From Geosiphon pyriformis uo1 (taxonomy: Eukaryota; Fungi; Glomeromycota), in the NCBI GenBank assembly GCA_016748015.1, contig JAAOMT010000134.1, positions 3,429 through 67,428 of the forward strand: 64,000 bases of DNA, given 5' to 3'. This document shows, piece after piece, positions 4,321 to 51,477 of the stretch (the first letter of the stretch is position 1; each line of letters opens with the position of its first letter). The notes under the pieces are model-generated. The model searched no databases, was not told where the DNA came from, and worked only from the letters and a program-made list of their open reading frames with translations. The position numbers were made by a program, and so were the translations under genes.

Positions 4321-4440
4321 TATAAGAGATTTGAAAATAAAAGAAAATTATTTTTTGGTGTATGGGTTTTTATATTATTTTTGCTTTGTTTTTGTGAGAT
4401 TGTTTCTAAATTATAAGGAGATAATTATAATAAATTTAAG

Positions 4441-5823: not shown

Positions 5824-5872
5824 TGTTTGTCGTTTTGTTGCTGTTATTTCAAATGGGTGTTGGTTTTGTGTT

Positions 5873-8800
5873 CTAATCTTGTCTCATTCTTGAGAGACAA
5901 TCAATGTTGGTGTGGAGTTTTCCTGGTTTATGGTGTACAATATATCAGTAGTTGGCTAAAAATCCTGTCCATTGGGTTTGTTTGATGTTCAGCTGAGTGT
6001 TTTTGTTCTGAAGCCATTTGAGTCCAATATTATCAGTGATAATATTAAATTCCTTTGGCCAGAGATAAAGATTGAAATGATGTAGGGCCCAAATTACAGC
6101 TGCTGTTTCCAATTCAGTGGCAGGGTAATTTTTTTCAGCTGGTTTTAATGTTCTGCTGGCATAAGCAATTACTCACTCATTTCCTTGGTTATTTAATTGT
6201 GACAAAATGGCACCAAAAGCAGTATAAGAAGCATTAGTGGCTAGTCAAAACCGGTTATTGAAGTCTGGGTAGGCAAGAATTGGAGCTGTTGTCAGCTTTT
6301 CTTTGAGAATTTTAAAAGCTTTTTGGTGTTCGGTAGTCCATTTGTATTCAACATTTTTGGTGGTGAGCTGGTTGAAGGGTTTTGCAATTTTCGAGAATCC
6401 TTTAATAAACTTCCGATAGTAGAATGCTAATCCGATAAATCCTCTTAGTTCTGTGGTATTTCGAGGAGTTTTGAAATTTTTGACAGTGCTGATTTTTCTG
6501 GGATCAGGTTTAATTCTATCTTTGCTAACAATGTGACCAAAAAAAGCCAAACTTGTTTTTCCGAAGTAGCATTTTTTGATGTTCAGTTTCAATCCTGCTT
6601 TCCGTAATCATTGAAAAACTTCTCGCAGGTGTTTTAAGTGTAGTTTAAAAGATGGTGAATAAACATCAGTATCATTGAGATAGACAACTACTGATTTCCA
6701 AAGAAGGCCTTTGTAAACAACATCCATGAGTCTTTGGTGTATTGCATAATCTGAAAGGCATTATGTTGAACTCATAGTTTTTTTTTTGAATGGTAAATGC
6801 TGTTTTGGGGTGATCTTTGGGATCTATGACAACTTGCCAGTATTCACTCTCTAAATCTAATGTCAAGAAGTATTTGGACTTCCCAAGGGCATCTAACATG
6901 TTATTGATTCAGAAAAGAGAGTAGGCATCTCTAATGGTGATGCTGTTAAGTTGTCGATAATCAACACAAAATCGTATTTTTCCATTTTTCTTTTTAACTA
7001 GGACCACAGGTGAAGCCCATGGACTCATTGATGGTTGAATAAGCCCATTGTTAAGCATTCATTGCACTTCTTCTTGGATAAATTAATGACTTTCTGGAGC
7101 AACTCAGTAGGCTTGTTGTCGCCTTGGTTTGGCATCTCCTGTGTAGATTTGGTGTTGAACCAAATTGGTTCTTCTTAAGTCATTGTTGTTTTCAGCAAAA
7201 ATATCGGCAAATTCTGCAATTAGTTCTTTGAGCTGGTTCTGTTGTTGTGGTTCAAGTTGTTCTATGTTAATTCAAGATAGTTTTTCTATGACAACATGGT
7301 AGTTTTCAGAGCTGGGGTTTGGGTTGATTTTTGGTAGTGAATGTCCAATAATTTCAGAGAAATCGGAAACTGTTTGGGGTAATTCTGATTAAAAGATATT
7401 ACTGTAAATAACTCCAATTTCTAAGTTATTTAATAAAACTATAGGGAAATTGTTGGGATTGTAAAAATTAACTCAGATTTTCTTTGTTTTTTTTGGAATA
7501 TAAATGTTTGGAATCGAGATATTATGTTCCAAGCAGATTTGTTCATTGGACTCAAAAATTTGTTGTGTGGTTGTTGGCTTTTCACAAGTGTAAATTTCAG
7601 GGTGTTCTCCAAAGAGTGAAATGGTAATTGGTTGTGGAAGTCATAAAATCTGGTGAGATTTTTTCTGTTTGTTGAGAGCTATGTTTACTGAAACTGTGAA
7701 TCGTTCAGTTAAACCAAAACTTTGGGTTCCTCTTTTGCTTTTTTCCAATAGTTCTCTTTGATTGACTAATTGTAAACCTGAAATGTTGATTAAGAGTAAA
7801 TAAATGGCTTGGGCAATTTTCTCGGCATGTTCAATCTTAAATGGCTTGTTAATTTCATTTTGGAGTATTACTGTTATGTCACCAGTATATCCAGCATCGA
7901 TTATTCCTCCTCTGACATTGATTCCTTTGCTTGCCAGAGAGAACCGGGAGGCAATTTGAATCATTGCTCTTGGTGGAATTTCGAGAGCAATTTTGAGGTT
8001 GATTTTTGTAAAAGATTTGGATTTGAGAACAAGAGTATCCTTGTCTGGATATCTTAGGTCATATCCAGCATCAATTTCGTGTGCTTTTTCAGGTTTTATT
8101 TCTTGTCTGTTGTTGTTGAAGTATTTGAGTTGTAAGACAGACTGATTTTTGATAAGATAGATGGGTGTTGTTTCAATTTCTTCTGTTGCTTCCAGTTCTC
8201 CAAATTCAATTTTGTTCTCATCACTTTCACTGGGCAAGAGGATACTAAGAGCATAGCATTCAGGACACCACTGTTCATCACAAGGCATAATGCATTCTTC
8301 ACATAGCCTAATGTTCATTTGCTCTAATCATTGAATTTAAGCTTCTTGGATTGGGTAGATGTGACTTGCAATTTGGTGGTAGACTTCTACTTTATCTTTA
8401 TAATCAAATCCAGCTAATTCCATGGTGTATTCAATGTATTCTGCTTCCTTTATTTGATGGACATCTTCTTTGGTAGCTCCATTAATTAATGCCATTGCTA
8501 GGTCAAAAATCATCTCAGCATCATGGAAGTAGTGATAAAGTTTGTTGAGAGCACTGTTGTATGCCGCATTAAAGGGTGTTTCTCTTTTTACTTTTTCTGA
8601 AATTAATAAAGCATATTGGCAGGTCTGATTGCAGACTCCTCCTCTTATTGCTATGTTAATTCAATTGCATTCTTCCGGTAGCATATCTCCACAAGTCAAA
8701 CAAGAGGTGTTGTCCCATTTTCCGCTTCTTTTTATTAGATGACCCCATTGTTCTTTGTGGCAAGCCTTGCAGTAATAACAAGTATGATTTTCATATTCTT

Positions 8801-11491
8801 CTTTAGGTGAAATGCAGGCTCCCATTGATGAGAGTTTCTTGTGGCAATCTTTGCATTTGAGTGGAATGTAAGGGCATTGTTTTCATGGTTCTGGTTTTGA
8901 ATAAGAAATATTCCATCCAGTTGTCACTGGTTTTTTTGTTTCAAAAGAATCATTTGTTGAAAAGTATTGTTGTTCAGTTTCATCAGCCCAATTGGAGATT
9001 GATCCAAGTGCCATAAATGTTTCAATGATGGGTTTTTCTTCTGGTTCGAATTCAAAAGCTGGGGCTTTTCCAGAGCATTTGTTGAATGTACCACAAGTAG
9101 CAGGTACTTGGGCATGTTGTTCTTGATAGGAGAGTTGTAATTCTTGGGTTTTCCAGTCTAATTTTGCATTGGCTTTTTGAAACCAATCATTTCCGATAAG
9201 GGCTTGATACTGGGATGCGTCCATTACAAGAACTTTAACTAGAATAGTAATTTCATTTAGAGTAAATGGAAAATTGTCAATTTCTCCTACTGGAGTCTTT
9301 TTCATGCCATCAGCAGTAACGATTACTGTCTGAGCTGGTCGATCAACATTTCTCTTTAACTGTTGCATCAATTGGTAGGTAATGATGCTTCCGGCAGATC
9401 CACTGTTTAGGATCAAGTGAATTGTCTTTCCTTCAACTTCTGCTTCAGTGTACATAGCAGTGATTGCTTTTTGTTTATTGGCGGCTGCATTGATAAGCAG
9501 GAATGATGACTTATTTGCTTTGAACTCAAAAGGGAATATATCTGAAAGGTTGGCATTTTTAGCAATTCTGGCTGGTGGGATTGTGGTAGGAGTATAAGAA
9601 GAGTTTTGTTGTCATGCTGCAGCTCTACCTTCCGAAAGTGCAGTATAGTGAAAATCTTGTTTTTCAGGTATTATAAGATAGCTAGATTGAGTATGATAAT
9701 GAGAAGGTTTTGGTTGAGCTGGATTTCAGAGAACTAATTGGTTATTTGGGTTGATTCTGTTGTTGTTTATTGCAAATCAGTTTTATGGTGCAAATTGGTA
9801 TTGTTGAACCAATCTTCAAGCAGGTACTTGGTAATAGTGAATGGATTGTCGATACTGTTGTTGCATTGGTTGTAGAGCAGGTTGATAGTAGTCAGTTTAA
9901 TATTGTGGTCTTGGTGGATAGTAAGCTGGTAGTAGTGGTGGTTGGTAATAAGATTGTTGTGGCAAAGAGTAATGTTGATTACTCTTGTTTTGTTGGTCTC
10001 ATTGTAGCTTTTTGCAATCTCTTTTCCAGTGGCCAGGGATTCCACAGTAATGGCAATTCTGAGGCTGGTTATTAGAGGATGATATGAAGTTGTTTTGATT
10101 CCATCTTTGGGGTAGTTAATATCTTTGGGGTTGCTGTTGTTGTTGGTTGGTAAAATAGTTTTTGACTTTTTTTGTGAGTTGGTCAATTTTCTCTTCAGCT
10201 GCTGAGCTGGTCTTTCCAATGGCTAAGTTCATGAGTTTTGTACAATTGGCTTCTTCCATAGCCATTTCATATCTTTTTGCTTGCTAAATAACAGAGTTTA
10301 AATCTTCTGGGACATGTGAGCAAATCTTTTTAATCAGTTTATCCTTTAAACCAGTGATAAATTGATTTAAGATTTGAGCATCGGAATAATAATCATTAGT
10401 TTTAAGTTGGTGAATTTGTCTGAAAAGTTTGTTGAATTTCCCAATATAAGTTATAACAGATTCGGAAGGTTCTTGTTTGATATTGTGAAAATGATTTCGA
10501 AGTGTGATTGAAGTGTTGTTATCGGTAAATTGTTCTAAGAAGGCAGTTTTGAAAGCTGTCTAGTTATTAAAAGGGGTGGTCAAGTTTTCGAACCATTCGC
10601 CTGCTGTTCCTTTAAGAAAGTAAAAAATTGTTCTTAACATTCTGGCAGCATTCCATCCATTTGCATCTCCAGCTTTAATAACTTGGTTAAGCCATTCTTG
10701 GGGACTGGTCTCAATGTCTTCTCCATTAAATTCAGGGATTTTTGCAATATATGCTATCATTTTGTCTTCTTTGTTTTTACTGTCTATTGATTCTTCTTCA
10801 GATATTTCAGAGTCATTTTCTTTGTTCACTGCTGTCTCAGAGTGTTCACTTCAATTTTTAGCTAGAAAGTCAAGGAGATTGAAACTAGTTTGAAGGGGTT
10901 CTTGTTGTCTGGTAGAACTTTTGGGTAATGTAAAATCTTCTAGTCTTGCAAATCGATTTAAGAGTGAATTAGGTGTTTGTGCTTGTACAAGTGAAGCTAA
11001 AAAAGGTGTGATAGTAAGTGGAAGTTTTGAACTGGTTCCTTGTTCAGGTGTTTGTAAGTGTTTGACAGTTGTTTTTGGTAGTATTGAAATATTTAGGGTG
11101 GTTTTTGAGTATTGCTTCAATTTTTGTTTGCCTTTGTTGCTTGTTTCTGCCTCTGATTCAAAATCAATAGAGTATTGAGACTGCACTGGATATGTTTCTT
11201 TATAGTACTTGATAATATTAAAATTAAGTTCTTGAAAGTAAGTGGCAAGTGTTTTACTGTTAAGATCTTTGGTTCCCAACTGTGAATAGTGTACTAAATT
11301 ATTGTAAAGATTGCTTCTAACTTCTGAGATATTGTAATTTCCAAAAAATAATTGTTGATGTGGTTTTTAATGTATTGGTATACTGATTTTTTGACAACTT
11401 CAATTCTATCTGGAATGTTGAATCTTTGCTTACAGTGGGTGTAAATTGACTGGTAATACTCTAGAGTTGTTGTGTCTGGTGTGGTCGCCAC
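5873..11491 (-). pseudogene. A2 ORF1: Gag-protease-Cys-rich domain-dUTPase-RT-RNase H
   Basis: CCHC knuckle CHYCGIPGHWKRDC (~10020-10065), LNSGSAGS protease, DAGYDL and IIDAGYTG dUTPase, RT and RH motifs; ends SRMRQD*. Confidence 0.9.
7705..8085 (-). pseudogene. dut: dUTPase domain within A2 ORF1
   Basis: Motifs DAGYDL, ASRFSLASKG, GGIIDAGYTG, EKIAQ, KRGTQSFGLT. Confidence 0.9.
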
Positions 11492-11536
11492 TTTGAAGTT
11501 GTTTTTGCTGTGTTGTTTCTGTGGGAAAGCACCAAA

Positions 11537-11728
11537 TGTTACCAGAGGTTTTTGGTCTTTTCTTGTATGTTTGTTGTAATGCTGTTAATTCATGGCTATG
11601 AGAAGTGTTTAAACCTCTGATACTGAATTTTATTTTCAAATTATCTCCTATAATTTGAACTGCTGAACTTATAAGTGGAATGGCCAATTCTGTGCCAGTT
11701 ATTTGTGTAGTTACATTGTAGTAAACGT
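11537..11728 (-). repeat. A2 5' LTR, U5 part; PBS TGGTGCTTTC at 11525-11534
   Basis: Matches 2672-2863 with 13 differences, all transitions. Confidence 0.9.
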
Positions 11729-12599
11729 TGTTACAGATGATTATTTCTGCTGTTGAATTAAATAACAACCTGTAACTTGGTGCTTAAAAGCTACTTCCAT
11801 GGATGAGGTTTTGCAAAATGTTGTATCTGAAGGTTTTTATAAAATTCTTTGTATAATGGACAGAGATTTAATAGTGTTAATAGTAGGTGTATCTTTCTAA
11901 GAATTTTCCCAATTTCTTTCTTAGCATGGTGGCCAGATTTAATCTGGCAGTTGTGCTCTTCTGGTAAGCTATCCAATAATATATATAAAATCCTACCCTT
12001 ATTTCTGGGTCTTTTACCAGGCTATCCTTGATGTCAATAACTCAGTGCTTAATCCTTTTTTCAATTAGTATACACAATAATTAAATCAAATAAAATAAAG
12101 AAAAGAAATAAAAGAAAATAAAAAAAGAAAATAAATAAGTCCGGGCAGTTTGGCAGATTAGTATTCCGTTAATAGCTGTGATCAAGAGCTATTGTTCTAG
12201 TATAGTTAAGTATTAATTACAATCAACATGAAGTGTTAATAGTGGAGAGTGGATTGAGATGTGGAATAATTATTTATTTGATGATTTTGTTTTTTGGCTA
12301 AGTATTCTGTGGTATCAATTCTGTCTTTTCTATTTCTAACACTACCGCTATATATACATAATTGGGATTCCTTAATTCCTTGATTCTTCATGACAGGAAT
12401 CCTGGAATTCCTGGAATCTTGCGATTCCTTTAAGAGGAATTCTGGAATTTTGGAATCTTGCAATTCCTTGTCAGAGAATCCTGAAATTTCTGGAATCCTG
12501 CAATTTCTGAGAGGAATCCTGGAATTCCACATTTACTATGCTTACTTCTGATTGGCTAATAAGTATGCTAATATATTTCTTATATTTCTATAAGTAACA
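11729..12599 (-). repeat. B 3' LTR (871 bp)
   Basis: TG...CA termini; longer GGAATTCC/GGAATCCT array than the 5' LTR. Confidence 0.95.
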
Positions 12600-12612
12600 T
12601 TATTCCCTCTTT

Positions 12613-13272
12613 TTAATATTGAGTTCCATCAAAATCCAACTCATGTAATTCCCCCTCTTGAAGTATTTCCTGGATTTTGTTTTTGAGAATTACTTGTGTT
12701 ATTTGGGTCTGTAATTCTTCAAATTGAGCATTGGTGATTTTTTCCAATTGATTACTGGTAACCATATCTATTGCTTTGTTGAGCAATATTTCTGGTTTAT
12801 CCTGAAATGCTGTGTGTATTCGGTATATGGCTCGAGCTTGTGTGGATAAGTTGTTCTTTCCCACAAAATGTTCTAATTGTTGTAGTATTCTTTTGTCAAA
12901 TAATCGCTTTGTTTTATCCATATATAGATTCTGGATATTTACGTGTTGTCCCAAGTAAAAATAACAATAGTTTTGTGGAAATTGTTGTATCCACTAATTC
13001 CAAGTTTCTTTAGTCAATTCTTGATATAATGACTCTTTTGTCAATTCTTTTATTGCTAATTTTATTTTCACCATGATTTTGTCCACCATATTTTTAGTTT
13101 TCTTCAGTGTTCTGAGTTGTAATGTCTTTCTAGTATCTTGATATTAAATGGTTTGTTAATTGATTGTAATTTCTATTTTCTGGTGTTGGATTAATTAAAA
13201 GAGTTGTTGTGCTAGTGTGTGAATGTTGTCTGTAATTTCCATTTTTCTGATATTTCCTGTCGCGTCTACCAT
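12613..13272 (-). pseudogene. B ORF3, unknown ~220 aa protein homologous to family A ORF3
   Basis: One frame with point stops: MEITDNIHTLAQQLF...NYCYFYLGQHV...QARAIYRIHTAF...LEKITNAQFEEL. Confidence 0.75.
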
Positions 13273-13296
13273 GTCTTTATATATTTTTTTGATTGA

Positions 13297-14679
13297 TCAA
13301 TTTAATATGTTGTTGTTAATAAGAACAATTGGTTCCAGATCTTGTGGAATCTCCTCTGGTCGGACTAGTATTCTCTGTACTCCTAATTGTGGAATATTAC
13401 TGGTAAATGGTAGTATAATATCACGATATGGCTTCAGTCAATCTCTATGCACTGCTTTGGTTAAAATTTTGTTATCCAATCTTAATTTGTAAGCTTCATT
13501 TTCTAGAATTTCTTCTATGTGAAATGGTCCGTCCCATTTGGGGTCAAATTTTCCACTCCACTGTTTTTCTACTTTGGTACGATGTAGTAATACTTTGTCT
13601 CCAATCTTGAATTCAACTGGTTTGTCTAGTAGTTGACTATTATGTCTTTTTTTCTGTTTTTTTTGTGACTTTTGAATATTATTAGCTGCTTTTTTTCGTT
13701 TGTTTTCCAATGTTTTTATTAAGTCATATGTTCTTCTTAGCAATGTTTCTTGAAAATTTTCTTCTGTTATTGGTTCAGCTGGATATGTATTAATTTTTCT
13801 CTCTACTGGTAACATTGCTGTTCTCCTATATACTAATTCAAATGGTGTTGTTTGTGTAGTATCTTGTTTCATTGTCCGATAAGCAAATAGTACTGATGAT
13901 ATGAACAAATCCCAATTGTTCTGGTTTTTTTGGCTGAGCTTAGCTATTGCTTCACACAGTATTCTATTGAATCTTTCTACTAATCCGTTGGTTTGTGGAT
14001 GGTATGGTAATGATAATGATCTCTTGATTCCAAATCTTTGGCTCAATTCTGTTAATGTTCTGTTCACAAAATGAGTTCTTTGGTCTGATAATAATTTTTT
14101 TGGACATCCATGTCAACAAATCAAATCCTGATGAACAAATTTGGCAACGGATTCTGCATCTGCTCTTTGAATTGCTTTTGCCTCTGGCCATTTAGTGAGA
14201 TAGTCCATGGCTACTACTATGTATCTGTTTCCTCTGCTGGTAATTGTTAATGGTCTGACTAAATCAATTCCAATACGGTCAAATGGTTGTCCCACTTTGA
14301 TTGGTCTTAATGGTTTACTGGGTCTTGTTCCTCCTTTTTGCTGACAAGCATCACAATTTTGAACATATTGAATGATGTCTGGGTACATTGATGGCCAATA
14401 GTATCTCTTTCTGGTTCTTTCCATGGTTGCTTCTTTGTGAAAATGTCCTGCTGTTGGATTTGAATGCATGTTGAATAATATTGTCTCTTTTTCTGGCTCC
14501 GTAATTACTCTGGTTGGTTGATCTGGATCCTTTCTATTTTTTTGATAAAGTATATTTTGGTGAGTGATAAAATATTTTGATTGTTGTTTGATACTTTTTT
14601 GTTTTGTTTGAGATAAATTCTCCTTGAACTGTTGAGTGTTTATATAATGTTGCAATTGTTGATATTTTTGTATGTTCAT
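13297..14679 (-). pseudogene. B ORF2, stand-alone integrase
   Basis: MNIQKYQQLQHY; HSNPTAGH...CDAC; IGIDLV; YHPQTNGLVERFNR; KWDGPFHI. Confidence 0.9.
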
Positions 14680-14740
14680 CTTTTGTTGTATTTTTCATTG
14701 CTATTGTTCTGGTTTTGTTATATTTTGGGTTGAAATGTTC

Positions 14741-17700
14741 TTAGATTTGTCTCATTCATGATAAACCGTCCATATTTCCATTGTCTTTTCCTTTTTTATA
14801 ATATATAGTATACTTATATGGTGCGAGTGCCATTTTCCATCTTAACTGTCTTCCATCTCCAAATTTTTGTTTTTAAAGTGATGTTAATCCTTTGTTATCT
14901 GTGTACACTTCAAACTTCTGGCTCAAATATTCTTTCCATTTCATAACTGACTAGTATATTGCTAAGTGTTCTTTTTCCAGTGTTCCATAGTTCTTTTTGG
15001 CTGGTATTAAATCTCTGCTGGCATATGCCACTGGATGTTCTTTGCTATCTGATTCTCTCTAAGATAGTACTGCTTCTAATGCCTGGCCTGATGCATCCAT
15101 GGTAATGATGAATGGTTTGCTGTAATCTGAATAGATCAGTACTGGAGCTTGTATAAGCTTTCTTTTTAGAATATCAAAAGCTTCTTGTTGACTTTCAGTC
15201 CATTCATATTTTGTATCTTTGTTTTGCAGTTGGTTAAGTGGCTGTGCTATCTTGGAAAAGTTCTTAATAAAACATTGATAGTAGCTGGCAAATCCCAAGA
15301 ATGATTTCAGTTCTGTTATATTGGTCAGCACTGGAAAGTTTTTTACTATCTCTATTTTCTCTGGATCCGTTTTGATGCCATCTTTGCTGACTATGTGTCC
15401 CAAGAATTTTAGTTCTATCTTGCCGAAGAAGCACTTTGTTGCATTTAACTTTAGTCCTGTTCTTCTTAGTCTTTTGAACACTTGTTGAAGATGATGAAGA
15501 TGATCATCAAACATTTTTGAGAATACATTGGTGTTGTCTAAGTATACAATTACTGATTTCCACAATAAACCAGTATAAACAATTTTCATTAGCCGCTGGA
15601 AAGTTGCTGGGGCATTGGTTAAGCCAAATAGCATTACTTCAAATTCGAAATTCCCTTCTCTAGTAGTAAATGCCATCTTCTCTTTGTCAGCTGAATTCAT
15701 GGTTACTTGCCAGTAACCACAGTCCAAATCTAATGTTAAGAACTATTTGTTCCCACCGAAAGCATCAAATAATTCCTGTATTCGTGGAGTTGGATAACTG
15801 TCTCCTCAAGTTATACCATTGAGTTTCCTGTAGTCTACACAAAACCGGATTTTTCCATTCTTCTTATGGACGAGTACCACTGGTGATGACCATAGGCTCA
15901 TTGATGATTGAATTAGCCCATTGTTAAACATTCTGTTTATCTCTTGATGAATGATCTCATGGCTGGCTGGCGGCATTCTATATGCTCTTTGTTTGATTGG
16001 CATTGCATCTCCAGTCTTGATCTGATGCTGGATGATGTCAGTTCAGCCAAACTCATTTTCGCTGGCAAAGATATTGTTGAAATTGTTGAGTAATATCTTA
16101 AGCTGCATATATTGGAGTGGATCTAAGTTTCCCATGTTCATTTGTTCCAATTGTTCTGGTTGGAGCAAATAACATTCGTCTCGTCCATAGATTGGTTGTA
16201 ATGTAATGTCAACATATTCACAAAGTTGTGAAAAGTCTGGAATGGGGTTGGGTGGTTGGTCTTCTATTTCTGTGGTTAAATATCCGATGGTGGTTTCTTC
16301 TGGTATGTTAATGACATTGCCAGTGTTGTTGTAGATGGAAATTTTTATGCTGCTATAGCTTTTGGCTTGTATGTGGAGATTGATCAACCCAATTTCTCCT
16401 GATTCACAAAGGTTTGCTTTAGCTTCAAAAATTTGTCCTTGCTCCTTTTCTTTCTTTCCTATTGCTAACATGTACTGGCTATATGGTAGAATAGAAATAG
16501 CTTGACCAGTTGAGATAATTTCTTCTTGGCCAACAATTTCTTCCTCTGCCATATTGACTGGTACATCTATTCTACTCGTTAATCCAAATCTTTGTATTCC
16601 TCTCACTGTTATTCCTAATTCCTCCCTCTTTCCCACTGACATTAACTGAGCTACTCTAACCAGAGGCAGGAATATTGCCTGTGCTATCTTTTTGTTGGGC
16701 TCTATTATATAGGCCTTTTCGGAGTCATTTTGTAGCATGACAATGATATTTCCCATGTATCTCGCGTCTATTATTCCTCTTTTTATATTGATCCTTTTTT
16801 TTGCTAAACTACTTCTAGATGCTAATTGAACCATTGTTGTTGCTGGAATTTCTAGTGCTATTTTCAGATCAATGCAGGTGCGTGAATGTGGTTCCAATTT
16901 GATGGCCTCTTTTTCTGGATATCTCAGATCAAACTCTGCATCCGTATTATGCACACATTCTGGCATAATACCTTCCCCATTGTTACTATATCATTTCAAC
17001 TCTTGTTCCTTGGAAAGATCTAGTAATGCAATGTATTGTTCATAGTTTAAATTGGAGTTTGAATCTGAGTTGGAATCAATATTGTTGTTGTCGCCATATT
17101 GAACGGAGCTGGGACTGGTGTTTTCATTGTCATCATTGTCAGAGTTTGAATTGGGATTGAAAATTGATTCCGATTCTAATGCATATCTGCTGATTGGTTT
17201 TTCCTTTTCAAGGATTGTATAGATCATGCATAGTGGTGGATTGTAAATGAGGTCACACTTATCACAATACTGAAAGTCACAGGAAATTAGGCAGTGTTGA
17301 CATAGTTGAGCATTTAACTGCTCTAACCATTGTTCTTGTTCTTCTCTTGTGGGTGCTAATTTTTGGTAGTGTTCGTAGAATTGTTCCGGATCCAGGAGAT
17401 TTATGATGAGTTCTGCATCCCAGTCAAGTTCTAAAGATTCTGGGGGGTTGTCTTTGATTGTTTTTATTTCCTCAGGTGATGCCTCTTCAATTTTGGCAAG
17501 TGCCATTCGCCAAATCTTGTTGTTGTCATGGGGACAACTGTCCAGTCGCTGTACAGCTCTTCTCTAGGCTGCTTTTATTGGGGTTCCTTTCCTTACCCAG
17601 TTGCTTATTAGAATCGTGTATTGACATGATACGTCGTATGTTCTTCTATGTTCTAGGATGTTGTTCCACATCTTTTCATCCAGAAGAGTTTCTCTACAGG

Positions 17701-20700
17701 CTATACATGGCATATTATCCCATTTTTCCATTCATTTTGGTCTTTCAAAACATTTGATATGACATGCGCAGCAATAGAACTTGGTTGCCATCTGATATTT
17801 TTCATCGTCACCACAGCATGCACCCATTGATGACAATTTCTTGCCGCAATCAATGCATATCAGTTTGGGTCAGCAATAGGTTGATGGTTGTTGTTGACTG
17901 TAGGTGTATGGGATATAAACATTGTTGGCTTGAGTGTTTTTTTCCTCTCTCTCTTTCCCTTTTTCTTTTTTTTCTTTGTTTTCTTCCCATTTCCAGCTTA
18001 AAGTTGGTTCGCTCTCATCGTTGTTGGTCCAGGTCAAGTCATCAGTTTCCCAGGTAAGTTCTTCCTTTTGTTTCTCTTTTTCATTGTCATTGTCATTCCA
18101 GGGGAGTATTGGTGGCAGTTTGTTGTGCTCTTCATTAGTCCACGACACTTGGTAGGCTTCCCAGGTAGGTTTTTCTTTCTCCTCCTCTAGTTCAATTAAT
18201 AGTTTCTCTCTTGGAGGAGTCTTGAAGTGGCCACACGTGGCTGGTACACGTATGTGTTGGCCTTAATGTGTTAGTTGAAGTTCCTGAGTGTTCCAGTCTA
18301 ACATCGTGTTGACTTTGAATAGCCAGTCATTACCAACAAGAGCTTGGTATTGAGTGGCTTCCATTACTAGAACTTTAATGGGAGTCACGATGTCATTGAT
18401 TTTGAAAGGAAAGTCATCGATTTCACTGATTGGAGTTTTGGTCACTCCATCAGCTGTGATGATTTTGGCACTGGCAGTTTAATCAACTCGGCAACCTAAT
18501 TGGTCCATGAGTTGCCATGTGATAATACTGCCTACTGAACCACTGTCAAGAATAAATTTGATGGATTGTCCCTCGACTTTGGCATCAGTGTACATTGTGG
18601 TAATTGGTTTGGCTTCAAGAGCGGCTTCACTAAATAATAGCATTGCAGCTGTTTCCTTGAATTCAAATGAGAAGATAGCAGCCAAGGACTTGTTTTCGGT
18701 GATAATAGCAGGTGGAATATTACTGGTGAGTGGTTGTTTTTGGGTAAATGCCAAGTTATTGGTTGAGGCGTCTTCTGGGGTGACCAAGAGACTTAAATAG
18801 TTCTGGGAATTCGGGCTCTGGGTTTGACCAGTACCCGAATTCCACTGGCGTAATCCAGATGATTGCTGTGAAAAACTGGAGATTAGTTGATGGACTATTA
18901 TTGCCAATCTCCAGCTCTGTTGAGTCATTCTCGGTCTTTGGGTTCTATTGGATGGTAAGCTTTGGGGTGGTGTTTGGATTTGGGGTTGATAGATTATTTG
19001 TGGCTGCAGTTGTAGATAAATCACTTGTGGCTGTGGTTGATAGATTAAAGCTTGGTATACCAGAGACTAATAGATGGATGACTGCATCACTGGTAGATAA
19101 GTGGATTGGTTTTGATTTGGGTACTGATTTGGAGTTTAGAACAGACAATTGGGGTTTTGATATTGATTTCTTGATCATTGGTTATTTAAACGCTGATGAC
19201 AGTCAATTTGGATGTGTTTTTGTTTACCACAATAGTAGCAGATACACATTTCTTGTTGCCACCATTAATTGGTTGATAAAGATGGCCGTGGCTAATTTTG
19301 GGCATGATTAAAGTTTCCTTGATTATTGCGTCATTGTGGAGGCTGATAAATGGCATGATTGTCAGCTAAGTATCTTTCCAATCTCTTATTAATTGATTCA
19401 CTGAATTTCTCCAATTTGGAATCCAATTCAGATGATCCGTTTATTATTAGATTAACAGCTTGGGTGTGGTTAGCCTCTGACTCAGCGGATTCAAAATCTC
19501 TGGCATGTGTAACTGCATTTTGAAGGGTACCTAGATGCAACGGACGTACATGTTGCAAGATGCTGCTGTGCAGGCCACAGATAAACTGATTGAGTATCTG
19601 TGGTGCTGTGAAATAGTTGGCATCAATTGCTTGAATTTGGTGTAGGTTTCAATGGAAGCGTCCCAGGTAAGTAGTAACTGCTTCAGTTTCTCCTTGTTTC
19701 ATGGTGGTGAATGCATTGACTAGGCAATTGATGCTGTTATTGTTGCTGAAGTATCTTAGGAATTTCGCTTTGAAGTCATTAAAATCTTGTGGTTTATTAA
19801 TCAAGCTCTGGTACCATAAATTGGCAGTGTCCTTGAGAAAGTAGGGAATGGCTTACATTGCTCAAGCATCATTTCATCTGTTGGCTGCGATGGCCTTTTC
19901 TATATCATTCAACCATACTTGAGCATTATCCTCTTTGCCAGTAAAGTTGTCAAGTTTTGCGATTGGTGCGTAGGCCATTGGATTTAAGTTAGGTGGTTGT
20001 GGTGGCTGTTGAAGCAGTTGTTGTTGTACTGGTTGTTGGGGTGGTAGTTGAAGTGGCTGCTGTATGAGTTCGGCTATGAAATTAATTGGTGGTTGACTGA
20101 TGACAATTACTGGAGGTAAGTTTTGTTGATTAATTAATTCAGAGTTTGGATTGTTTTGCCTTTGATGATTCGGAGTTTTGATTTCTGAATTTTCTAGATC
20201 TGGATTTTGCTGAGTTTGAAAATTCAGGGTTTCAACTTCCCAGTTTTCAGTGATCGGGCACTGGTAAGTGAATTCTTGATCTTCTGATTCTTTTTCCTCT
20301 TTTTCTGATTCTGCTGCTTCCCACGGATCAGAGATTCCAAAATCTGGTGGAAGCAGTGGTAATCAAAGTCCTGATGGAGTTGATGATCGCGAATTAAATC
20401 CCTCAAAGTATTCGCCATATGGTCCTAACAATTCTGTTTTTCTTTGTCTACTTTGGAATGGGAATCATCCAAATGCTAATGTCACAGTTGATAAGAATGC
20501 ATCTGTTGATAATATGTTGATGGTGCTTCTAGGTGTATAGTAGTAGAATGGGTTGCCTGGGGATTCAACTCTGTTTTTCTTCCAAGCAGGTGGCTGTATT
20601 TTTCTGGGTGTTACTGCTGGTGTTTGTAATTTTCTCTTGCCTTTACTAGTGTATGTAATTGGATATCTTTGTTGAGTGTGATGTTCAATTTCTTTGTTGA

Positions 20701-20959
20701 TCTTAATGATGATAGATACAAAATTATGATTTGTTAGTAGATTGGTGTTTTGAATTAATTTTTTATAGAAAGTTTCTCTTGCTGATTCAGTATTCACTGG
20801 TGTTCCTAATAAAGAGAAAATCTTTTCATTGACATAGAAATTAAAGGCTGATTTGGCAGATATATAATTGTAGTTTAATTCCAAGTATTGACAATAGTGT
20901 TGAAATAAGAATTTTGCGAATCCTAAATAGTTTGCTCTTATATTTTCTGATTCTGCCAC
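14741..20959 (-). pseudogene. B ORF1: single-frame Gag-PR-Cys-rich-dUTPase-RT-RNase H (~2070 codons)
   Basis: ORF pieces starting at 20959, 19558, 19024, 18445, 18148, 17506, 16966, 16003 and 15727 share one frame; ILDSGS, RFCVDYRKLN, VYLDNT, TMDASG; ends MRQI*. Confidence 0.9.
16570..16966 (-). pseudogene. dut: dUTPase domain within B ORF1
   Basis: DAEFDLRY, ASRSSLAKK, GIIDARYMG, KIAQAIF, VRGIQRFGLT. Confidence 0.9.
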
Positions 20960-21002
20960 TTTTGGTTTGGTGTTGTCGGTGCTGGTTCTCTGTAAGATTA
21001 TA

Positions 21003-21019
21003 TCTCACAGAGAGCACCA
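21003..21019 (-). promoter_or_regulatory. B PBS TGGTGCTCTCTGTGAGA, probably for elongator tRNA-Met
   Basis: Adjacent to the 5' LTR; complement ...CTCACAGAGAGCACCA. Confidence 0.8.
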
Positions 21020-21021
21020 AA

Positions 21022-21836
21022 TGTTACAGGTGATTATTTTTGCTGTTGAATTAAATAACAACCCATAACTTGGTGCTCAAAAGCTACTTCCATGGATGAG
21101 GTTCTGCAAAATGTTGTATCTGAAGGTTTTTATAGAGTCCTTTGTATAATGGACAGAGATTCAATAGTGTCAATAGTAAGTGTATCTTTCCAAAAGTTTT
21201 CCCAATTTCTTTCTCAGCATGGTGGCCGGATTTAGTCTGACAGTCGTGCCCTTCTGGTAAGCTATTCAATAATATATATAAAATCCTACCCTTATTTCTG
21301 GGTCTTTTACCAGACTATCCTTGATGTTAATAATTCAGTGCTTAATCCTTTTTTTAATTAGTATACACAACAATCAAATCAAATAAAATAAAGAAAAGAA
21401 ATAAAAAAAAATAAAGAAAGAAAATAAATAAGCCTGGGCAGTTCGGCAGATTAGTATTCTGTTAATAGCCGTGATTAAGAGCTATTGTTCCAGTGTGGTT
21501 AAGTATTAATTACTATCAACATGAAGTGTTGATAGTGGAGAGTGGATTGAGATGTGGAATAATTATTTATTTAATGATTTTGTTTCTTGGCTAAGTATTC
21601 TGTGATATTGATTCTGTCTTTTCTGTTTCTAACACTACTACTATATATACATAATTGAGATTCCTCAATTCCTTGATTTTTCACAACAGGAATCCTGCAA
21701 TTTCTTGTCAAAGAATCCTGAAATTCCTGGAATCCTGCAATTCCTGAGAGGAATCCTGGAATTCCACATTTACTATGCTTACTTCTGATTGACTAATAAG
21801 TATGCTAATATATTTCCTATATTTCTATGAATAACA
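21022..21836 (-). repeat. B 5' LTR (815 bp)
   Basis: Matches 11729-12599. Confidence 0.95.
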
Positions 21837-21840
21837 ATGT

Positions 21841-22609
21841 CAACTCTTTCCCAGGAATTGCTCGTTTGGAAGCTCACTAAAAATGTGTAGTTACTTTGCT
21901 GTGAAAGTCAACTTTTCTATAGGAATCTCGTCTGTAGGCTACCCTAATGATTGTAAAAAAAAATAAAATAAAATAAAAGAAATGTAAAAGAAATAGGATT
22001 TTATTAAGGAAAACATTTTCTATCCAGGCCTGGAGTCACTAACAGTTTACTGAAATTGATAGCTAATTAATTTCGAAATGTTAGTTGGGTTTTGGAGATT
22101 TTTCAAGTACAATAATTAAAAAAATTTGGTTTTTCGAATTATTTGATATTTATTTCTTTTTGTGTGTATAGGAACAGTTTTAAGAGATAAATCTAAAGTA
22201 AAATACATTTTCTCAAAGAGAGAAGCTCTTCTTTTATACAACTTGTTGTAACACTATTCTATGAACTTGAACTTTGCTATTTTCTATAATTTTGCTAAAC
22301 TAAAAATACATTTTGGCGAACTACAAGTTATTTCTGCAAGCTATTAGATATTTTGGTAAACTATTAATTATTTTGGCAAATTCCTACAAATTTTGGTGAA
22401 CTTTTTGAATGTTACATAGTTCGGAGTATTGCATGATTAATCATCACAATTAGGTTATATTTGTGTTATGTACAAATTGGGTTATTAATTAAATGATAAT
22501 TTCGGATATTTTGCTAATGTAATAAGTAATAATTTGAAATGCTAATTAATAATAAAAATTATAAAGATAATTTCATGCTAAGCAATATCTCTAATTTTGT
22601 CTGGTAACA
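21841..22609 (-). repeat. A2 5' LTR, U3/R part
   Basis: Matches 2864-3632; ends CTGGTAACA. Confidence 0.9.
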
Positions 22610-22613
22610 ATGG

Positions 22614-25600
22614 CTTGATAAAGTACAGAAAGCAGGAGATGCAAATGATTAGAATGCAGCAAGAATGCTCAAAGCAATTCCATATTTTCTCCAAGACACT
22701 GCAAAAGAATGGTTTGAAAACTTAGAAGAATCATTTGAAAACTGGTAAGCATTCAAAGATGCTTTCTTACAACAATTTACTAACAACAATATCTTTATCA
22801 CTCTCTGCAATCACTTTCACAATATTAAACAAGAGACATCTGAAACTGTTATAACCTATCTTAAAAAATTTAATAAACTTCTTCAATGAATTCAACAATT
22901 GGAAACCAATGATTACTATTCCAATGCTCAGATTCTGGATCAGTTTATAGCAGGATTAAAAGACAAATTGATAAAAAAAGTTTATCCACATGTACCAGCA
23001 GACTTAACAACTGCCATTAGACATGCAAAAAACTATGAAATAACAATGGAAGAAGCAAACCACATCAAACTTGTCAACCTGGCTATTGGAAAAACCAGCT
23101 CAGCAGCTGAAAAAAAGATAGACCAACTCACAAAAAAGGTTGAAAGCTACTTTACAAATCAACAACAACAGCAGCAACCACCACAAAGATATCAACCTCC
23201 ACAACAATGCAATCAAAATGGCTTTGGATTACTATCTAACAACCAATCTCAAAATTGTTATTATTGTGGAATTCCAAGACACTGGAAACAAGATTGCAGA
23301 AAATTGCAAAGAGACCAACAAAACAGGAGTAATCAATATTACCCTTTACTACAACAATCTTATTACCAACTTCTACCACCAACTCATTATTCACCAAGAC
23401 CACAAAATTAAAACAATTACTATCAGCCAGCTCCACAACTAATGCAGCAACAATATCAGCAATCTTTATCAATTTAGCAATATCAACCACTTACTCCACA
23501 ATATCAAGTACCAGCCAGAAGACTGGTATAACAAAACTAATTCACACCACAAAACCGTTTTTTAACAAACAACAACAGAATCAATTTAAATAACCAGTTG
23601 GTTCTCCAGAATTCTGGTCAGCAAAGACCCAATCACTATTACACTCAGCCCAGTTATTTAACAATGCAAAAAGAATCGGATTTTCAACAACCTGCACTTT
23701 CTGAAAGTGAAGTTATAGCACCAAGATCAGACCCTTCCAACAACACCATTTCACCAGCCCAAATTGCCCAAAATGTTAACCTTTCAGATATATTCCCATT
23801 CGAATTTGAAGCAAATAAATCACCATTCTTGCTTAGTAATGCAGCAGCTATGAACAAAAAGCTATTACTGTCATGTACATTGAAGCCACAGTAAAGAGAA
23901 AACTTATTCGATTAATTCTAGACAGTGGATTAACTAGAAGTATCATCACATACCAATTAATGCAACAACTTGATTGAAATGTTGACAGACCAGCCCAAAC
24001 AGTAATTGTGACAGCAGATAATATAAAAAAGACACCAGTAGAAAAAATTAACAACTTCCCATTCACCATTGATGAAATCACCATTCCAGTTAAAGTTTTA
24101 GTTATGGATACACCCTAATACTAAGTTCTTGTTGAAAATGATTGGCTTCTTAAGGCCAATATAAACTTAGACTGGGAAACTCAGGAATTAAAAATCTCAT
24201 ACCAAAGACAATACACTATAATACCTGCTACTTGTAAAACTTTCAACAAATAATCAGAAAAAGCCTCAGTGTTTGAATTTGAAGAGGAAAAAAAAATGCC
24301 ATTCACTAAAACCTACATGGCTTTTGGATTAACATCCAATTGAGCTAAGAAAACAGAACAAGAGATTTTTAAAGAATCAAGAAGATAGAAAAAAGTTAGA
24401 TATTTTACACCTGAACCATGAAAAAAACCACAATACATTTCACTAAAATACAAAGATTGCAAAAAGAAGCTTTTATCTATGGGAGCCTGTATTTCTCCAG
24501 AAGAGGAATACAAAACTTGCACTTGCTACTTCTGCAAAACATGCCATAGAGAATGATTTGGATCCTCAAAAAAAAGTAGAAAATGGGACAACACACCTTG
24601 TTTTACATGTGGAGATATGCTATCAGAAGAATGCAATTGGATTGATATTGCAATGAGAGGAGGGGTATGTGATCAAACCTGTCAATATGTCCTATCAATT
24701 TCGGAAAAAGTCAGAAGAGAAACACTATTTGATGCAACATACAACAATGCTCTCAATAAACTCTACTACTATCCTTATGATGCTAAAATAATTTTTGATT
24801 TGGCAATGACATTAATCAATAGAGCCACCCAAAAAGATGTCTGCCAAATAAAAGAAGCTGAATATATTGAGTATACAATAAAATTAGCTGGATTCAACTA
24901 TGAAGATAAAGTGGAAACATACCACCAAATTACAAGCTACACTTATCCAATCCAAGAAGCTCAAATTTAATGATTAGAGCAAATGAATATTCAATTGTGT
25001 AAAAAATGCATCATGTCTTGTAATAACAAATAGTGTTCAGAATGCTATGTTCTTAGCATTCCTCTGCTCAGTGAAAATAACCAGGAAGAAATCGAATTTG
25101 GGAAACCAGAAACAAAGAATAAAACCACAACAACACCAATCTATTTTACTGAAAACCAGCCTATTATACAACTCAAATACTTTGACAACAATGGGCAAGG
25201 AATAAAACCAGAAAAAGCTCACGAAATTGATGCAGAATATGACTTCAGATATCTTGACAAAGATACTTTAGTTCTTCAACCAAAGTTCTTAACAAAAATC
25301 GACCTCAAAATTGCCCTTGAAATTTCATCTGGAACAATAGTTCAAATTGCATCCAGATTATCATTGGCAAGCAAAGGAATTAACATTAAAGAAGGAGTTA
25401 TAGATGCAGGATATACTGAAGACATTACTATCATGTTGCAGAATGAAACAGACAAACTATTCAGGATTGAACATGTTGAAAAAATTGTCCAAGCAATTTA
25501 CCTACTCTTAATCAACATTTCAGGTTTACAATCAGTTAACAACAGAAAACAATTGGGAAAAAGTGAAAGAAAAATGCAAGGTTTTGGTTCAACTGGATGA

Positions 25601-27445
25601 TTTACAGTCCCAGTAAACATAGCTCTTAATACACAGAATAAATCTTACCAGATTTTTCAACTTTTCCAACCAATTACCATTTCACTTTTTGGTAAACATT
25701 ACGAAATTTACACTTGTTCAAAACCCATCACTACCCAACAAATCTTTAAATCCAATAAACAAATCTGTTTAAAGCATGAAATCTTAATCCCAAACATTTA
25801 TATTCCCAAAGGAATGAAAAAATTTCAAGTTATATTCTACAACCCCAATAATTATCCTATTGTCTTATTGAACAAATTGGAGATTGGAATTATACACAGT
25901 AATATCTTTCAAAATGAAAACTTTTAAATTGTCTTTGATTTCATCGAAATTATAAGATATACACTACTTCCAAATCCAAACATCATTCTTACTACTAAAA
26001 ACTACCATCTTTTGGAAGAAAAACTCTCTAGAATCAACATGAGTCTCTTAAAACCCCAACAACAAAGACAATTAAAACAGCTAATAGCTGAATTTGCAGA
26101 TATTTTTGCAAAAAACAACAATGATCTTGAAAAAACTAATATTGTTCAACATCAAATCCACACAGGAGATGCTCTGCCAAAATGACAACAAGCCTATCGA
26201 GTTCCACCTGCTAGCCACCAGTTTATCAGAGAAGAGGTTCAAAGAATGCTCAATAACAAATTGATTTAACCATCAAGAAGTCCTTGGGTCTCATCAATAA
26301 TACTTATTAAAAAGAAAAACAGAAAAATCAGATTCTGTGTAAATTACTATCAGCTCAACAGCATAACAATTGAAGATGCCTATTTTCTTCCAAGAATTGA
26401 TAATATGTTGGATGCCTTAGGAAAAGCCAAGTTCTTCTCAACTTTGGACTTGGAAAGTAGATACTGACAAGTTGAAATGGACCCAAAAGATCGACCCAAA
26501 ACAGCATTCACCACTCAAGGAGGGAATTATGAGTTCAATGTTATGCTTTTTAAACTTTGCAATACACCAGCAACATTCCAACAACTCATAGATGTTGTAT
26601 ATAAAGGACTCTTATGGCAATCAGTAGTTGTTTATCTTAATAACACTAATGTATACTTACCAAGCTTTAAAGCCTATCTTATCTACCTGCAAGAAGTTTT
26701 TCAATGATTATGAAAAGCAGGATTGAAGTTGAACATTAAGAAATATTACTTTGAAAAAACAAGCTTAATTTTTCTTGAACACATTATCAGCAAAGATGGA
26801 GTCAAACCAAATTCTAGAACAATCAGTGCTGTCAAAAACTTCCAAACACCCAAAAATACCACAGAGCTGTGAGGATTTGTAGGATTAGCCTCATATTATC
26901 AGAAATTTATTAAAGGATTTTTAGAAATTGCTAAACCACTCAATTATCTCATCAACAAAAATGTGTCATACAAATGGACTGAAAAACAACAGAAAGCTTT
27001 TGAAATTCTTAAAACAAAACTAACAACAGCTTTAGTTCTTGCTTACCCAGACTTTAACAAATGATTTCAACTAATCACTAATGCTTCACACATAGCATTT
27101 GGTGCTATTCTATCACAATTAGATGAAAATGGCTAGAAACAAGTCATTGTCTATGCTAATAAAATACTCAAATCAACAAAACTCAAATATGGTTCAACTG
27201 AATTAGAAGCTGCTGCAGTCATTTGGGCTTTTAAACATTTTCAACAATATCTGAAGAATGGAAAAGAATTTGACATTATAACTAACAATATTGGCCTTAA
27301 ATAGCTCAATAAAAAGAAAACTGAACAAAGTACCAAACAGTCTCGATGGAATAACTTCCTAGCAGATTACAAATATATTGTATACTACAAACCAGGAAAA
27401 TTACACACAAATGTTAATAGTCTCTTCAGAATGAGACAAGATTAA
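22614..27445 (+). pseudogene. A1 ORF1, 3' part: capsid, CCHC, protease, Cys-rich domain, dUTPase (~25215-25597), RT, RNase H
   Basis: CYYCGIPRHWKQDC; ILDSG; GVIDAGYT...QGFGSTG; KTAFTTQGGNYEFNVM; ends RMRQD*. Confidence 0.9.
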
Positions 27446-27501
27446 TAACACCAACAAATCGACTATAACTTACCAACCTACCAACAAATAATAAAGCAAC
27501 A

Positions 27502-28887
27502 ATAAATTCCAGAAATTACAACAATTTTAAAAACTATTTGGAGACTCTTATCATACCAGAAAATTAGTTCCCAAGTAAAAAACATCGATTACAACACCAA
27601 TCCAAACAATATTTTATACACCACAACAAAATCTATTACAAAAATCACAGAAATCCAAACCAACTACTCAGATTAATACAAGAGAATGAAAAAGAAACAA
27701 TTCTATACAACATACACACAGATCTTTCTTCAGCACATTTGGGAAGAGATGGAACAATTCAAAGAACTCTTAAACATTATTTTTGGCCTTACATGCAAAA
27801 AGACATTCAACAATATGTAGAATCTTGTGATAGTTGTCAAAAAAGAGAAGGAACTCATCCCACAGAATCTTTAAATCCAATCAAAGTTGGACAATCTTTT
27901 GACAGAGTTGAAATTGATTTAGTCAGACCATTATCTATCACAACCCAAGGAAATCATTATATTGCAGTTGCAGTAGATTATCTTATCAAATGGCCTAAAG
28001 CTAGAGCCATCCAAAAAGCAGATGCAAAATTAGTAGCAAATTTCATCTATGAAAACATTATTTGTAGATATAGATGCCCAATTGAACTTTTATCTGATTA
28101 AGGAACACATTTTGTAAACAACTTAATACAAGAAATTTGTGAATGATTCAATGTCAAAAGACTTTTATCATCATCTTATTACCCTCAAACAAATAGACTT
28201 GTAGAACATTTCAACAGAACATTGTGTGAATCTTTAGCCAAAGTTTCAACAGATTTTAAACAAGAATGGGATATCTTTATTTCATTAGTGTTATTAGTAT
28301 ACAAAACACTAAAACAAGTTACTATAAAACACACACTATTTGATCTTACTTATGGAAGGACAGCAATATTACCAATTAATTTCACAGTAGAAACATACCC
28401 AGTACAACCAATTAATAAAGAAAACTTTCAAGAAACACTCCAAAGAAGAGCCTACACTCTCCTTAGTACATTGGAAGGAAAAAGACACATAGCAGCCTCT
28501 CATATTGAATACTTTCAAGCCTTACAAAAAGAAAAGCATGACAACAAACTGTTACTAATTACTAACGAATTTAAGATTGGAAATAAAGTTTTCTTACACA
28601 GAACTAAGGCTAAAAAACAATGGAGTGGAAAATTTGAACATAAATAGGATGGACCATTTTATATTCACAAAATTTTAGGCAATGGATTATACAAGTTAAG
28701 ACTTGATAACAAAGTACTAGCAAAAGTTGCACATGGAAATAGATTAAAACACTATCATTCCAGAAACAATCCTAAACCATTAATTCCACAAATTGGTAAA
28801 TATTCTTCTTTAGTTAATCCTAAAAATATTCCCCGAAATTTAGAACCAATAATTATAATTGAACAACAACCAAACTTGAACACTTAA
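27502..28887 (+). pseudogene. A1 ORF2, stand-alone integrase (start ATG decayed to ATA)
   Basis: ORFs 27739 and 28222 share a frame; HHCC, EIDLV, GPF. Confidence 0.85.
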
Positions 28888-29038
28888 TTTAACATAATTT
28901 TACAATAGTTCTTTTAATAATACACAAAAACAAAAATAATAAATAATACAAAAACACCCAAACCCAAAAACAAATAAAAATCCCATATTCAAAAATAATT
29001 TTCTTTATTCTTCTTTCTATTAGTTAACCATTTTTATT

Positions 29039-32009: not shown

Positions 32010-32148
32010 TAATAATTTTTTTTTTATTACATTTAATGAGTGAAGTCCAAACATGGCCTAGTATCATACATTATATAAATGATCTAAACTAGGTGCAAAT
32101 CATGCATTATCAACATGTAACCAGCCACTTAGGCCAATCAAAACAACA

Positions 32149-38781: not shown

Positions 38782-38886
38782 TACAACAAAATAGGGTATG
38801 TTAGAAGAAATAACTAAAGATAATAAGGAGGAAGGGGAAAAGAAAAAGCTAAATTTTTGGCAATACAAATGCTCTCTTTTAATAAT

Positions 38887-51427: not shown

Positions 51428-51477
51428 ACAGTATTACTCATAGAATTATAGGGAATATATATTAGCATAGTTATTAA

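Follow-up and report, generated by a model that had tools for sequence, protein, structure and literature searches.

The DNA analyzed here, a stretch of 64,000 nucleotides (nt) from Geosiphon pyriformis uo1 (contig JAAOMT010000134.1, positions 3,429 to 67,428 of the forward strand; hereafter the window), is AT-rich, with a CpG observed/expected ratio of 0.21, and consists of nearly nothing other than retroelement sequence; zero tRNA genes were found in it with ARAGORN. At 11729–21836, on the minus strand, lies a Ty3/Gypsy-type long terminal repeat (LTR) element, B, in which the integrase (IN) is encoded outside Pol. The first open reading frame (ORF1; 14741–20959) spans 2,072 codons in one frame from a putative GUG start and ends at RNase H (RH). 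It is followed by an A/C-rich, unstructured spacer of 61 nt (14680–14740), by the integrase as a separate frame with its own AUG (ORF2; 13297–14679, 460 codons with 2 internal stops), and by a third frame of about 219 codons with 4 internal stops and no assigned function (ORF3; 12613–13272). ORF1 comprises an N-domain, Gag, a CCHC knuckle (amino acids 574–587, read by eye), protease (PR), a Cys-rich domain, dUTPase, reverse transcriptase (RT), and RNase H, with Pfam identifying Gag, protease, dUTPase, RT, and RNase H in that order. The capsid region of Gag (19466–19978) opens with an in-frame ATG at 19978, matched by one in family A, the second family in the window. The Cys-rich domain (17252–17866) is not assigned to any family, is common to A and B (77/200 identical) and shows coding constraint, and dUTPase (16556–16990; PF00692, E 3e-18) sits between protease and RT. 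The element is bounded by a 5′ LTR (21022–21836; TGTTAC...GTAACA) and a 3′ LTR (11729–12599), both defined by self-alignment and their termini, and includes a primer-binding site (21004–21019) and a polypurine tract (12600–12614).

Comparison across copies was based on five window copies (B, the family A copies A1, A2, and A3, and the truncated B-family copy B2) and on contigs of run X1, 110,030 of which match this region; runs X2 and X3 contained next to no sequence from the stretch. The ORF1–ORF2–ORF3 layout that the initial annotation had described in B, A1, and A2 was confirmed, the three having in common the RNase H end, the stop, and the integrase start. In A1 (minus strand) ORF1 runs from GTG 11491 to a stop ending at 5873, followed by integrase at 5823–4441 and ORF3 at about 4320–3601; in A2 (plus strand) it runs from GTG 1883 to a stop ending at 27445, followed by integrase at 27502–28887 and ORF3 from about 29081. 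A3 (plus strand) likewise carries ORF1 (57374–62842) and, as annotated, an integrase running from ATG 62895 to the window end. In all four copies ORF1 ends four codons past the conserved RNase H end, and the stop is separated from the integrase start by 61 nt in B, 49 in A1, and 52 in A3 (all +1) and by 56 nt in A2 (−1). These spacers are 69–92% A+C with a predicted folding energy of 0 kcal/mol, and three of the four lack an ATG, the single one in B being a minority letter in X1. The position of the integrase start is conserved throughout (ATG 14679 in B; A2 reads ATA). Among 979 X1 contigs over the B junction no variant was listed at the ORF1 stop, at the integrase ATG, or at an in-frame TAG located 24 nt 5′ of that ATG, the listing threshold being at least 3%, and an absent row is no proof of identity; a 1-nt insertion in the spacer had a depth of 219,594/316,670. 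The two families share this junction with LTRs whose best match is 11 bp (E 0.33, self-alignment) and with identities of 64/166 (39%) in Gag, 143/242 (59%) in RT, 40% in RNase H, and 237/450 (53%) in integrase, bearing out the annotated unalignable LTRs and divergent Gag. That ORF1 ends at RNase H and is followed by a separate integrase ORF with its own AUG and then by a third ORF is nearly certain.

The B integrase is composed of an N-terminal extension, an H2C2 finger, a DDE core, and an SH3-like end, and the best solved relative of its profile was Ty3 Gag-Pol (7q5b, E 2e-49). The extension ahead of the zinc finger is conserved over 60–70 amino acids, with an aromatic spacing that, judged by eye, may resemble YPYY. 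No chromodomain was found by Pfam in P0001 or in the Pfam lists of the best 120 near-length matches (P denotes protein or gene-model homologues, L metagenome loci). These 120 matches, from a search restricted to 253–805 amino acids, are 44–50% identical, the named ones coming from Rhizophagus irregularis and R. clarus; 100 start exactly in the column of the window Met, 18 further in, and 2 upstream. Among the best 120 long proteins, four reach at least 41% identity (41–52%), all of them eukaryotic gene models.

The junction was surveyed in 83 loci at the DNA level, 41 of which contain both the RNase H end and integrase. All nine loci with an integrase identity of at least 39% and an upstream RNase H are split, as is L037 (31%), and no stop was found inside RNase H in any of the 10. 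Their spacers measure −8, 30, 62, 63, 74, 89, 110, 163, 365, and 727 nt, in frames 0, +1, and +2, with no ATG in six of nine loci and with the ATG overlapping the stop in L019. The remaining 31 loci comprise 22 fused and nine distant, decayed ones; these nine, called split by the script, were set aside as decay, being at most 35% identical with the ordinary fused linker continuing. Intact copies, sought in relatives as the initial annotation had advised, were found, for example L001 and L005. L001 has open frames of 1,479, 418, and 147 codons, with the integrase start following the ORF1 stop even though ORF1 extends about 310 amino acids beyond RNase H, and in L015 all frames are present between 435-bp terminal repeats. 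The ORF1 tails of L001 (L001:3503-4438, about 310 amino acids) and L015 (L015:4945-6702, about 590 amino acids) are acidic and Cys/His-rich and belong to no Pfam family; L006, L007, and L025 carry a similar tail ahead of integrase. Upstream in ORF1, a single in-frame UGA followed by CUA, a known leaky-stop context, lies between protease and RT at L002:870, L015:3358, and L019:1585; L019 has a further UGA after Gag, and in L018 Gag and Pol overlap in different frames. A covarying RNA stem-loop was observed just 5′ of the integrase start in L001 (L001:4466-4502), L003, L006, L007, L008, L014, L021, L025, and L026, consisting of an outer 3-bp stem, a purine-rich internal loop, a 6-bp stem, a bulged A, and a small hairpin. 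It was not found in the window and had no match in Rfam (nine loci), and it could be a translation or packaging signal.

In a concatenated RT–RH–IN tree (53 rows, the P rows having been thinned by identity; 760 columns; rooted at the midpoint; bootstrap values not fully converged), 14 split rows, two gene models, and the natural fusion P0126 form one clade (100/99), within which the four window copies group together (100/100). The chromodomain-bearing rows P0143 and P0163 lie outside it, and all tree neighbors are Gypsy-type polyproteins, the tree having been built without GyDB/REXdb references or an outgroup. L034 and L045, which we take to be plant Athila/Tat-like elements, adjoin the clade (95/97). 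The distinct lineage proposed at the outset therefore holds and is wider than claimed, including intact metagenome relatives and Glomeromycota gene models. P0126, from a 3.6-kb metagenome contig, is nested among split elements and is likely a secondary re-fusion. No dUTPase or Cys-rich match was found across the loci (zero). The single-frame ORF1, dUTPase, and Cys-rich domain are features of the Geosiphon branch and not clade-wide; ORF1 varies within the clade, whose nearly constant trait is the free integrase. Viral contigs yielded only three weak and unrelated integrase matches.

In B, ORF1 extends from GTG 20959 to TAA 14743–14741 with 25 internal stops, compared with 134 and 136 in the other frames, and is broken into eight fragments of at least 100 amino acids; the initial annotation was correct in assigning its fragments to a single frame and not in counting nine, the ninth probably being shorter. 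A3 has 1,823 codons in one frame with 19 internal stops; a run of 20 N lies at 58942–58961, the frame being identical on either side. A1 and A2 carry decay frameshifts, so the single-frame ORF1, and with it the annotated absence of a gag/pol frameshift, rests on B and A3. At 19 of the 25 stops of B, Arg, Gln, or Trp is the residue most often aligned (Geosiphon models or A3); another 4 show a tie and 2 have distant data only, a pattern that fits decay by C>T and G>A changes. One of the 25 is common to A3; programmed readthrough within the window ORF1 was rejected, as this stop is Gln in nine Geosiphon models and in A1 and A2. Differences at codon positions 1/2/3 were 24/28/45 and 55/45/93 in the N-domain, 34/22/81 in the Cys-rich domain, 28/17/52 in dUTPase, 80/48/118 in integrase, and 59/32/80 in ORF3, whereas a linker showed scarcely any excess (27/25/32). 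Outside the linker, differences at third positions are about double those at first or second positions, indicating that all five regions were coding. All 24 proteins returned for the Cys-rich and dUTPase region are Geosiphon pyriformis gene models (candidates of 1,139–3,625 amino acids), and the closest ORF1 homologues are from this species throughout. The Cys-rich region had no usable match in the feature atlas.

The motif AAAGTGG is found 30–45 nt past the primer site in all five copies, and the frame is not kept 5′ of it. Downstream, an in-frame ATG stands at the start of the capsid region in both families (B 19978, A3 58106). Between the GTG and this Gag ATG, fewer ATGs were observed than expected in B (5 versus 12.4, P 0.010), A3 (2 versus 8.2, P 0.003), and A2 (1 versus 8.2, P <0.001), with no such depletion in the Gag or RT control regions. 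From the conserved motif, the loss of frame upstream, the third-position excess of the N-domain, and the ATG depletion, we infer that a weak GUG serves as the ORF1 start and that leaky scanning carries some ribosomes on to the Gag AUG, giving a shorter form.

A profile built from nine locus ORF3s identified 461 clusters at 50% identity, with 140 of the best 150 being at most 200 amino acids long. A deeper profile placed ORF3 behind integrase in 11 loci and at the C terminus of P0126 and P0124; in nine loci the IN-to-ORF3 spacers are 32–150 nt long and occur in all frames. The fusion in P0126 suggests that ORF3 may act with integrase. The L005 ORF3 is modeled as an all-helical domain (predicted local distance difference test score, pLDDT, 92.4). 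Foldseek searches of PDB and BFVD gave nothing at E ≤0.001 and a wide fold search gave a best Z of 5.1 (root mean squared deviation 3.3, 69 aligned), which does not establish a new fold. No Pfam family is common to the members, and no transmembrane segment was found in five ORF3s (top 19-residue hydropathy 0.42–0.91). With no hydrophobic segment, no shared Pfam family, and a soluble all-helical model, ORF3 does not resemble env; of the retrovirus-like complexity first proposed, the third ORF stands and the env-like sense does not. An atlas match of ORF3 to a closterovirus coat protein (0.94, 150 shared features) was discounted as chance, and a single-sequence model of the A1 ORF3 was unusable (pLDDT 41.9). 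Within the window, the ORF3s of B and A1 are 24% identical over 98 amino acids (E 4e-6). In A1 and A2 integrase and ORF3 are separated by a common TAA and a long spacer, and in B by a single in-frame TGA and 24 nt. This TGA could be a decay stop, B then possibly being an IN–ORF3 fusion, yet its position six codons past the motif that ends many relatives favors a native stop.

Taken together, these data make it highly probable that integrase is made as a free protein. Restart after ORF1 has about an even chance of being the route of its translation, and is favored by the shortness of the spacers, which are unstructured and in most cases free of ATG, by the overlap of stop and start in one locus, and by a start that tracks the ORF1 stop. 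Ribosomes would initiate ORF1 at the weak GUG, or by leaky scanning at the capsid-start AUG to give the shorter form; after the ORF1 stop some would move on over the short A/C-rich stretch, resume translation at the integrase AUG, and do so once more at ORF3. Being separate from Pol, the integrase would have to be packaged non-covalently, and by analogy with foamy virus Pol it may join the particle through contacts with RNA or RT, with ORF3 possibly working beside it as a soluble helical accessory protein. As a whole, a Ty3/Gypsy-type lineage with a free-standing integrase, restart translation, and non-covalent packaging is, by a modest lean, the explanation we prefer. A bolder form is rather doubtful: an intact and widespread fungal clade with integrase freed from Pol, polycistronic RNA translated by restart, and ORF3 as a new-fold loader or targeter of integrase. 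If this is true, such a clade would offer a ready origin for Ginger-type DNA transposons that encode only an integrase, or would parallel them.

Several observations weigh against the restart explanation or its parts. Eukaryotic ribosomes restart inefficiently after an ORF of 2,000 codons over 50–60 nt unless a helper signal is present; no calicivirus-type UGGGA motif was found within 100 nt ahead of the stop in any of the four copies, and stop and start overlap in 0/4 window copies and 1/10 split loci. The spacers of L002 and L015, at 365 and 727 nt with 7 and 12 ATGs, cannot be crossed by scanning and call for a different route, so that more than one may operate in the clade. P0126 is a natural RT–RH–IN–ORF3 fusion within the clade, and the gene model P0127 retains the RNase H end ahead of integrase. 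The near-length integrase matches are stand-alone by selection, owing to the length limit of the search, and run X1 is possibly the window's own source and therefore not independent. For the ORF1 start, the ATG depletion of B2 is not significant (7 versus 12.1 expected, P 0.079), and the A3 N-domain contains one in-frame ATG. For ORF3, that of A1 matches the family weakly (hidden Markov model E 9e-4; hhalign probability 34–56%) and that of B has no direct match to it; from position and a shared motif, homology of the window ORF3s to the family is likely, not proven.

The strongest competitor to restart, although clearly the less probable of the two, is translation of integrase and ORF3 from a subgenomic RNA that arises either at an internal promoter or through splicing from the 5′ LTR. 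It would accommodate the long, ATG-rich spacers of L002 and L015, and short 5′ leaders also look ATG-free, unstructured, and A-rich. In the portion of PMC5408684 that treats them, spliced messages are the typical means by which LTR elements express ORF3, and foamy virus Pol is produced from a spliced mRNA in the corresponding part of PMC3705302. The window spacers, however, contain no pyrimidine tract and three of the four do not end in AG, and the integrase start lies at most 110 nt from the ORF1 stop in 7/10 loci, even where ORF1 is extended.

Internal ribosome entry on the genomic RNA, whether through the A/C-rich spacer or, in one subclade, through a conserved RNA structure, appears improbable. 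The window spacers are CAA-rich and G-poor, as are the enhancer leaders of plant viruses, and the covarying stem-loop lies within about 20 nt 5′ of the integrase AUG, with 94% of cells paired across eight aligned loci and 6/11 pairs changed on both sides. The stem-loop is nevertheless absent from the window, was drawn from the same sequences that were used for scoring, and could equally serve packaging or processing.

Still less probable is that a fused Pol–integrase is made by frameshifting, readthrough, or removal of a small intron over the junction. Four long gene models (41–52% identity) do join upstream domains to integrase, and recoding is suggested elsewhere in relatives by the UGA-CUA between protease and RT in three loci. 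However, the RNase H end is missing from P0124 and P0125 and RT from P0128, which looks like introns introduced by the gene finder, and the conserved integrase Met would be unnecessary in a fused product. The junction varies freely in frame (all three) and length (−8 to 727 nt), and in family B the in-frame TAG 24 nt ahead of the ATG closes the integrase frame, making frameshifting or readthrough unlikely. A continuous RH–IN frame, which would have contradicted the annotated layout, was looked for, and the family is split, though the relative P0126 is fused. Finally, decay or assembly as the origin of the split can be virtually dismissed, as the initial annotation had held for decay in B. The window copies are full of C>T/G>A stops and include the frameshifts of A1 and A2, and the CpG ratio is the low one given above, but two families with about 55% protein identity have the identical stop, as do intact split relatives such as L001, which refute an artefact.

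Self-alignment and target-site duplications (TSDs) revealed a three-deep nesting, B inside A1 inside A2. B is inserted in the 5′ LTR of A1 (TSD ACGT/ATGT, 4 bp with one mismatch), and X1 contigs connect 11726 to about 21840, giving the A LTR without B. A1 (2672–22609, minus strand; TSD ATGG), with its body and 3′ LTR at 2672–11728 and its split 5′ LTR resuming at 21837–22609, is inserted in the gag of A2 (848–30685, plus strand; TSD ACAG). A2 is thereby cut into its 5′ LTR and ORF1 start (848–2671) and a remainder (22610–30685) that includes the 3′ LTR (29727–30685). A3 occupies 56348–64000 and includes its 5′ LTR; B2 (51431–55584, plus strand) retains an LTR, the N-domain, Gag, protease, and the start of the Cys-rich region. 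LTR mismatches number 64 in about 815 bp in B, 57 in about 958 bp in A1, and 66 in about 959 bp in A2; this divergence is out of nesting order, B being innermost and youngest, which makes LTR dating unreliable here. Further B-like LTRs at 39531–40408 and 55576–56347 (68–78% identity to the B LTRs) have no B body adjoining. A decayed non-LTR element of long interspersed element (LINE) type, with endonuclease-, RT-, and RNase H-like frames recognized by eye, lies at approximately 31000–39000 (minus strand), with LINE-related fragments at 231–816, 47246–48005, and 49646–51184, and a 1-kb direct repeat (43315–44294 and 45830–46800, 82%) flanks a tandem array at 44790–45693.

The elements share with Ty3/Gypsy the direct LTRs (TG...CA), the primer site beginning TGG 2 nt past the LTR (in B, with the same start in A1, A2, A3, and B2), the polypurine tract, the short TSD (4 bp in A1, A2, and B), a Gag with CCHC, and the order PR–RT–RH–IN (Pfam). 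They differ in the integrase, which lies outside Pol in 4/4 window copies and 10 loci, in a third ORF of no known family, and in the lack of a chromodomain, which chromoviruses carry at the integrase C terminus. The pol of Metaviridae is a PR–RT–RH–INT polyprotein in the part of PMC3248453 that defines it, and the present elements, although they work like Ty3/Gypsy, are not canonical members. Retroviruses and LTR retrotransposons normally release integrase by cleavage of a Pol precursor, through which it enters the particle in the right amount. A clade with a separate integrase must solve translation and packaging in another way, a question that the intact L001 and L005 make testable. The split layout explains why arbuscular mycorrhizal fungi carry annotations of lone 'DDE transposases', or of integrases joined to RT through doubtful introns. 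LTR elements make up 41.2% of the G. pyriformis genome (PMC11952901, in the passage giving repeat content), which together with the 110,030 X1 contigs points to very successful families.

Several components are already known: a dUTPase placed between protease and RT, Gag-Pol in a single frame, and additional ORF3s. In fungal dUTPase Gypsy elements (Postia PosPlaTy3-5, Phanerochaete elements, Tuber Tmt1) dUTPase likewise lies between protease and RT, as stated for PosPlaTy3-5 in part of PMC2864245, and bdelloid Juno, Vesta, and TelKA likewise have an extra ORF3, which in the relevant portion of PMC5408684 is env-like, GDSL, or DEDDy, whereas the ORF3 here belongs to no Pfam family. Both groups were left out of the RT–RH–IN tree and are set apart by their descriptions, which in the parts cited give one or two ORFs and an integrase within Pol. 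No LTR element with a separate integrase ORF was found described in the open-access literature, to which the search was limited, Repbase, GyDB, and REXdb lying outside its scope; nor is one described in the portions consulted of bioRxiv 10.1101/2021.03.30.436303, PMC13468544, PMC5009743, and PMC10508981. The suggestion of a possibly undescribed lineage extends only as far as open-access sources.

The closest likenesses of the integrase itself are the YPYY-type integrases (Athila/Tat, Cer1, Gypsy-1-I_RO, DGLT-A1, and Ginger1), which likewise have an N-terminal extension before H2C2 and a GPY/F end. An integrase of this type is all that Ginger1 encodes of the set, and its TSDs are 4 bp long, according to the section of PMC2836005 that describes it, but it has inverted repeats, no RT, and an OTU or Ulp1 domain, in contrast to the direct LTRs and Gag, protease, and RT found here with neither domain (Pfam). 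The split layout bears on the movement of integrase between LTR elements and Ginger-type DNA transposons. Foamy viruses offer a comparison in function only, in that they produce an essential enzyme separately from Gag and must package it non-covalently, as the pertinent part of PMC3705302 has it. They separate the whole of Pol, integrase included, by splicing, whereas here integrase alone is separate, Gag–PR–RT–RH stay joined, and there is no env. Against the open-access literature searched, what appears to be new is a free-standing integrase ORF in an otherwise Ty3/Gypsy-type element.

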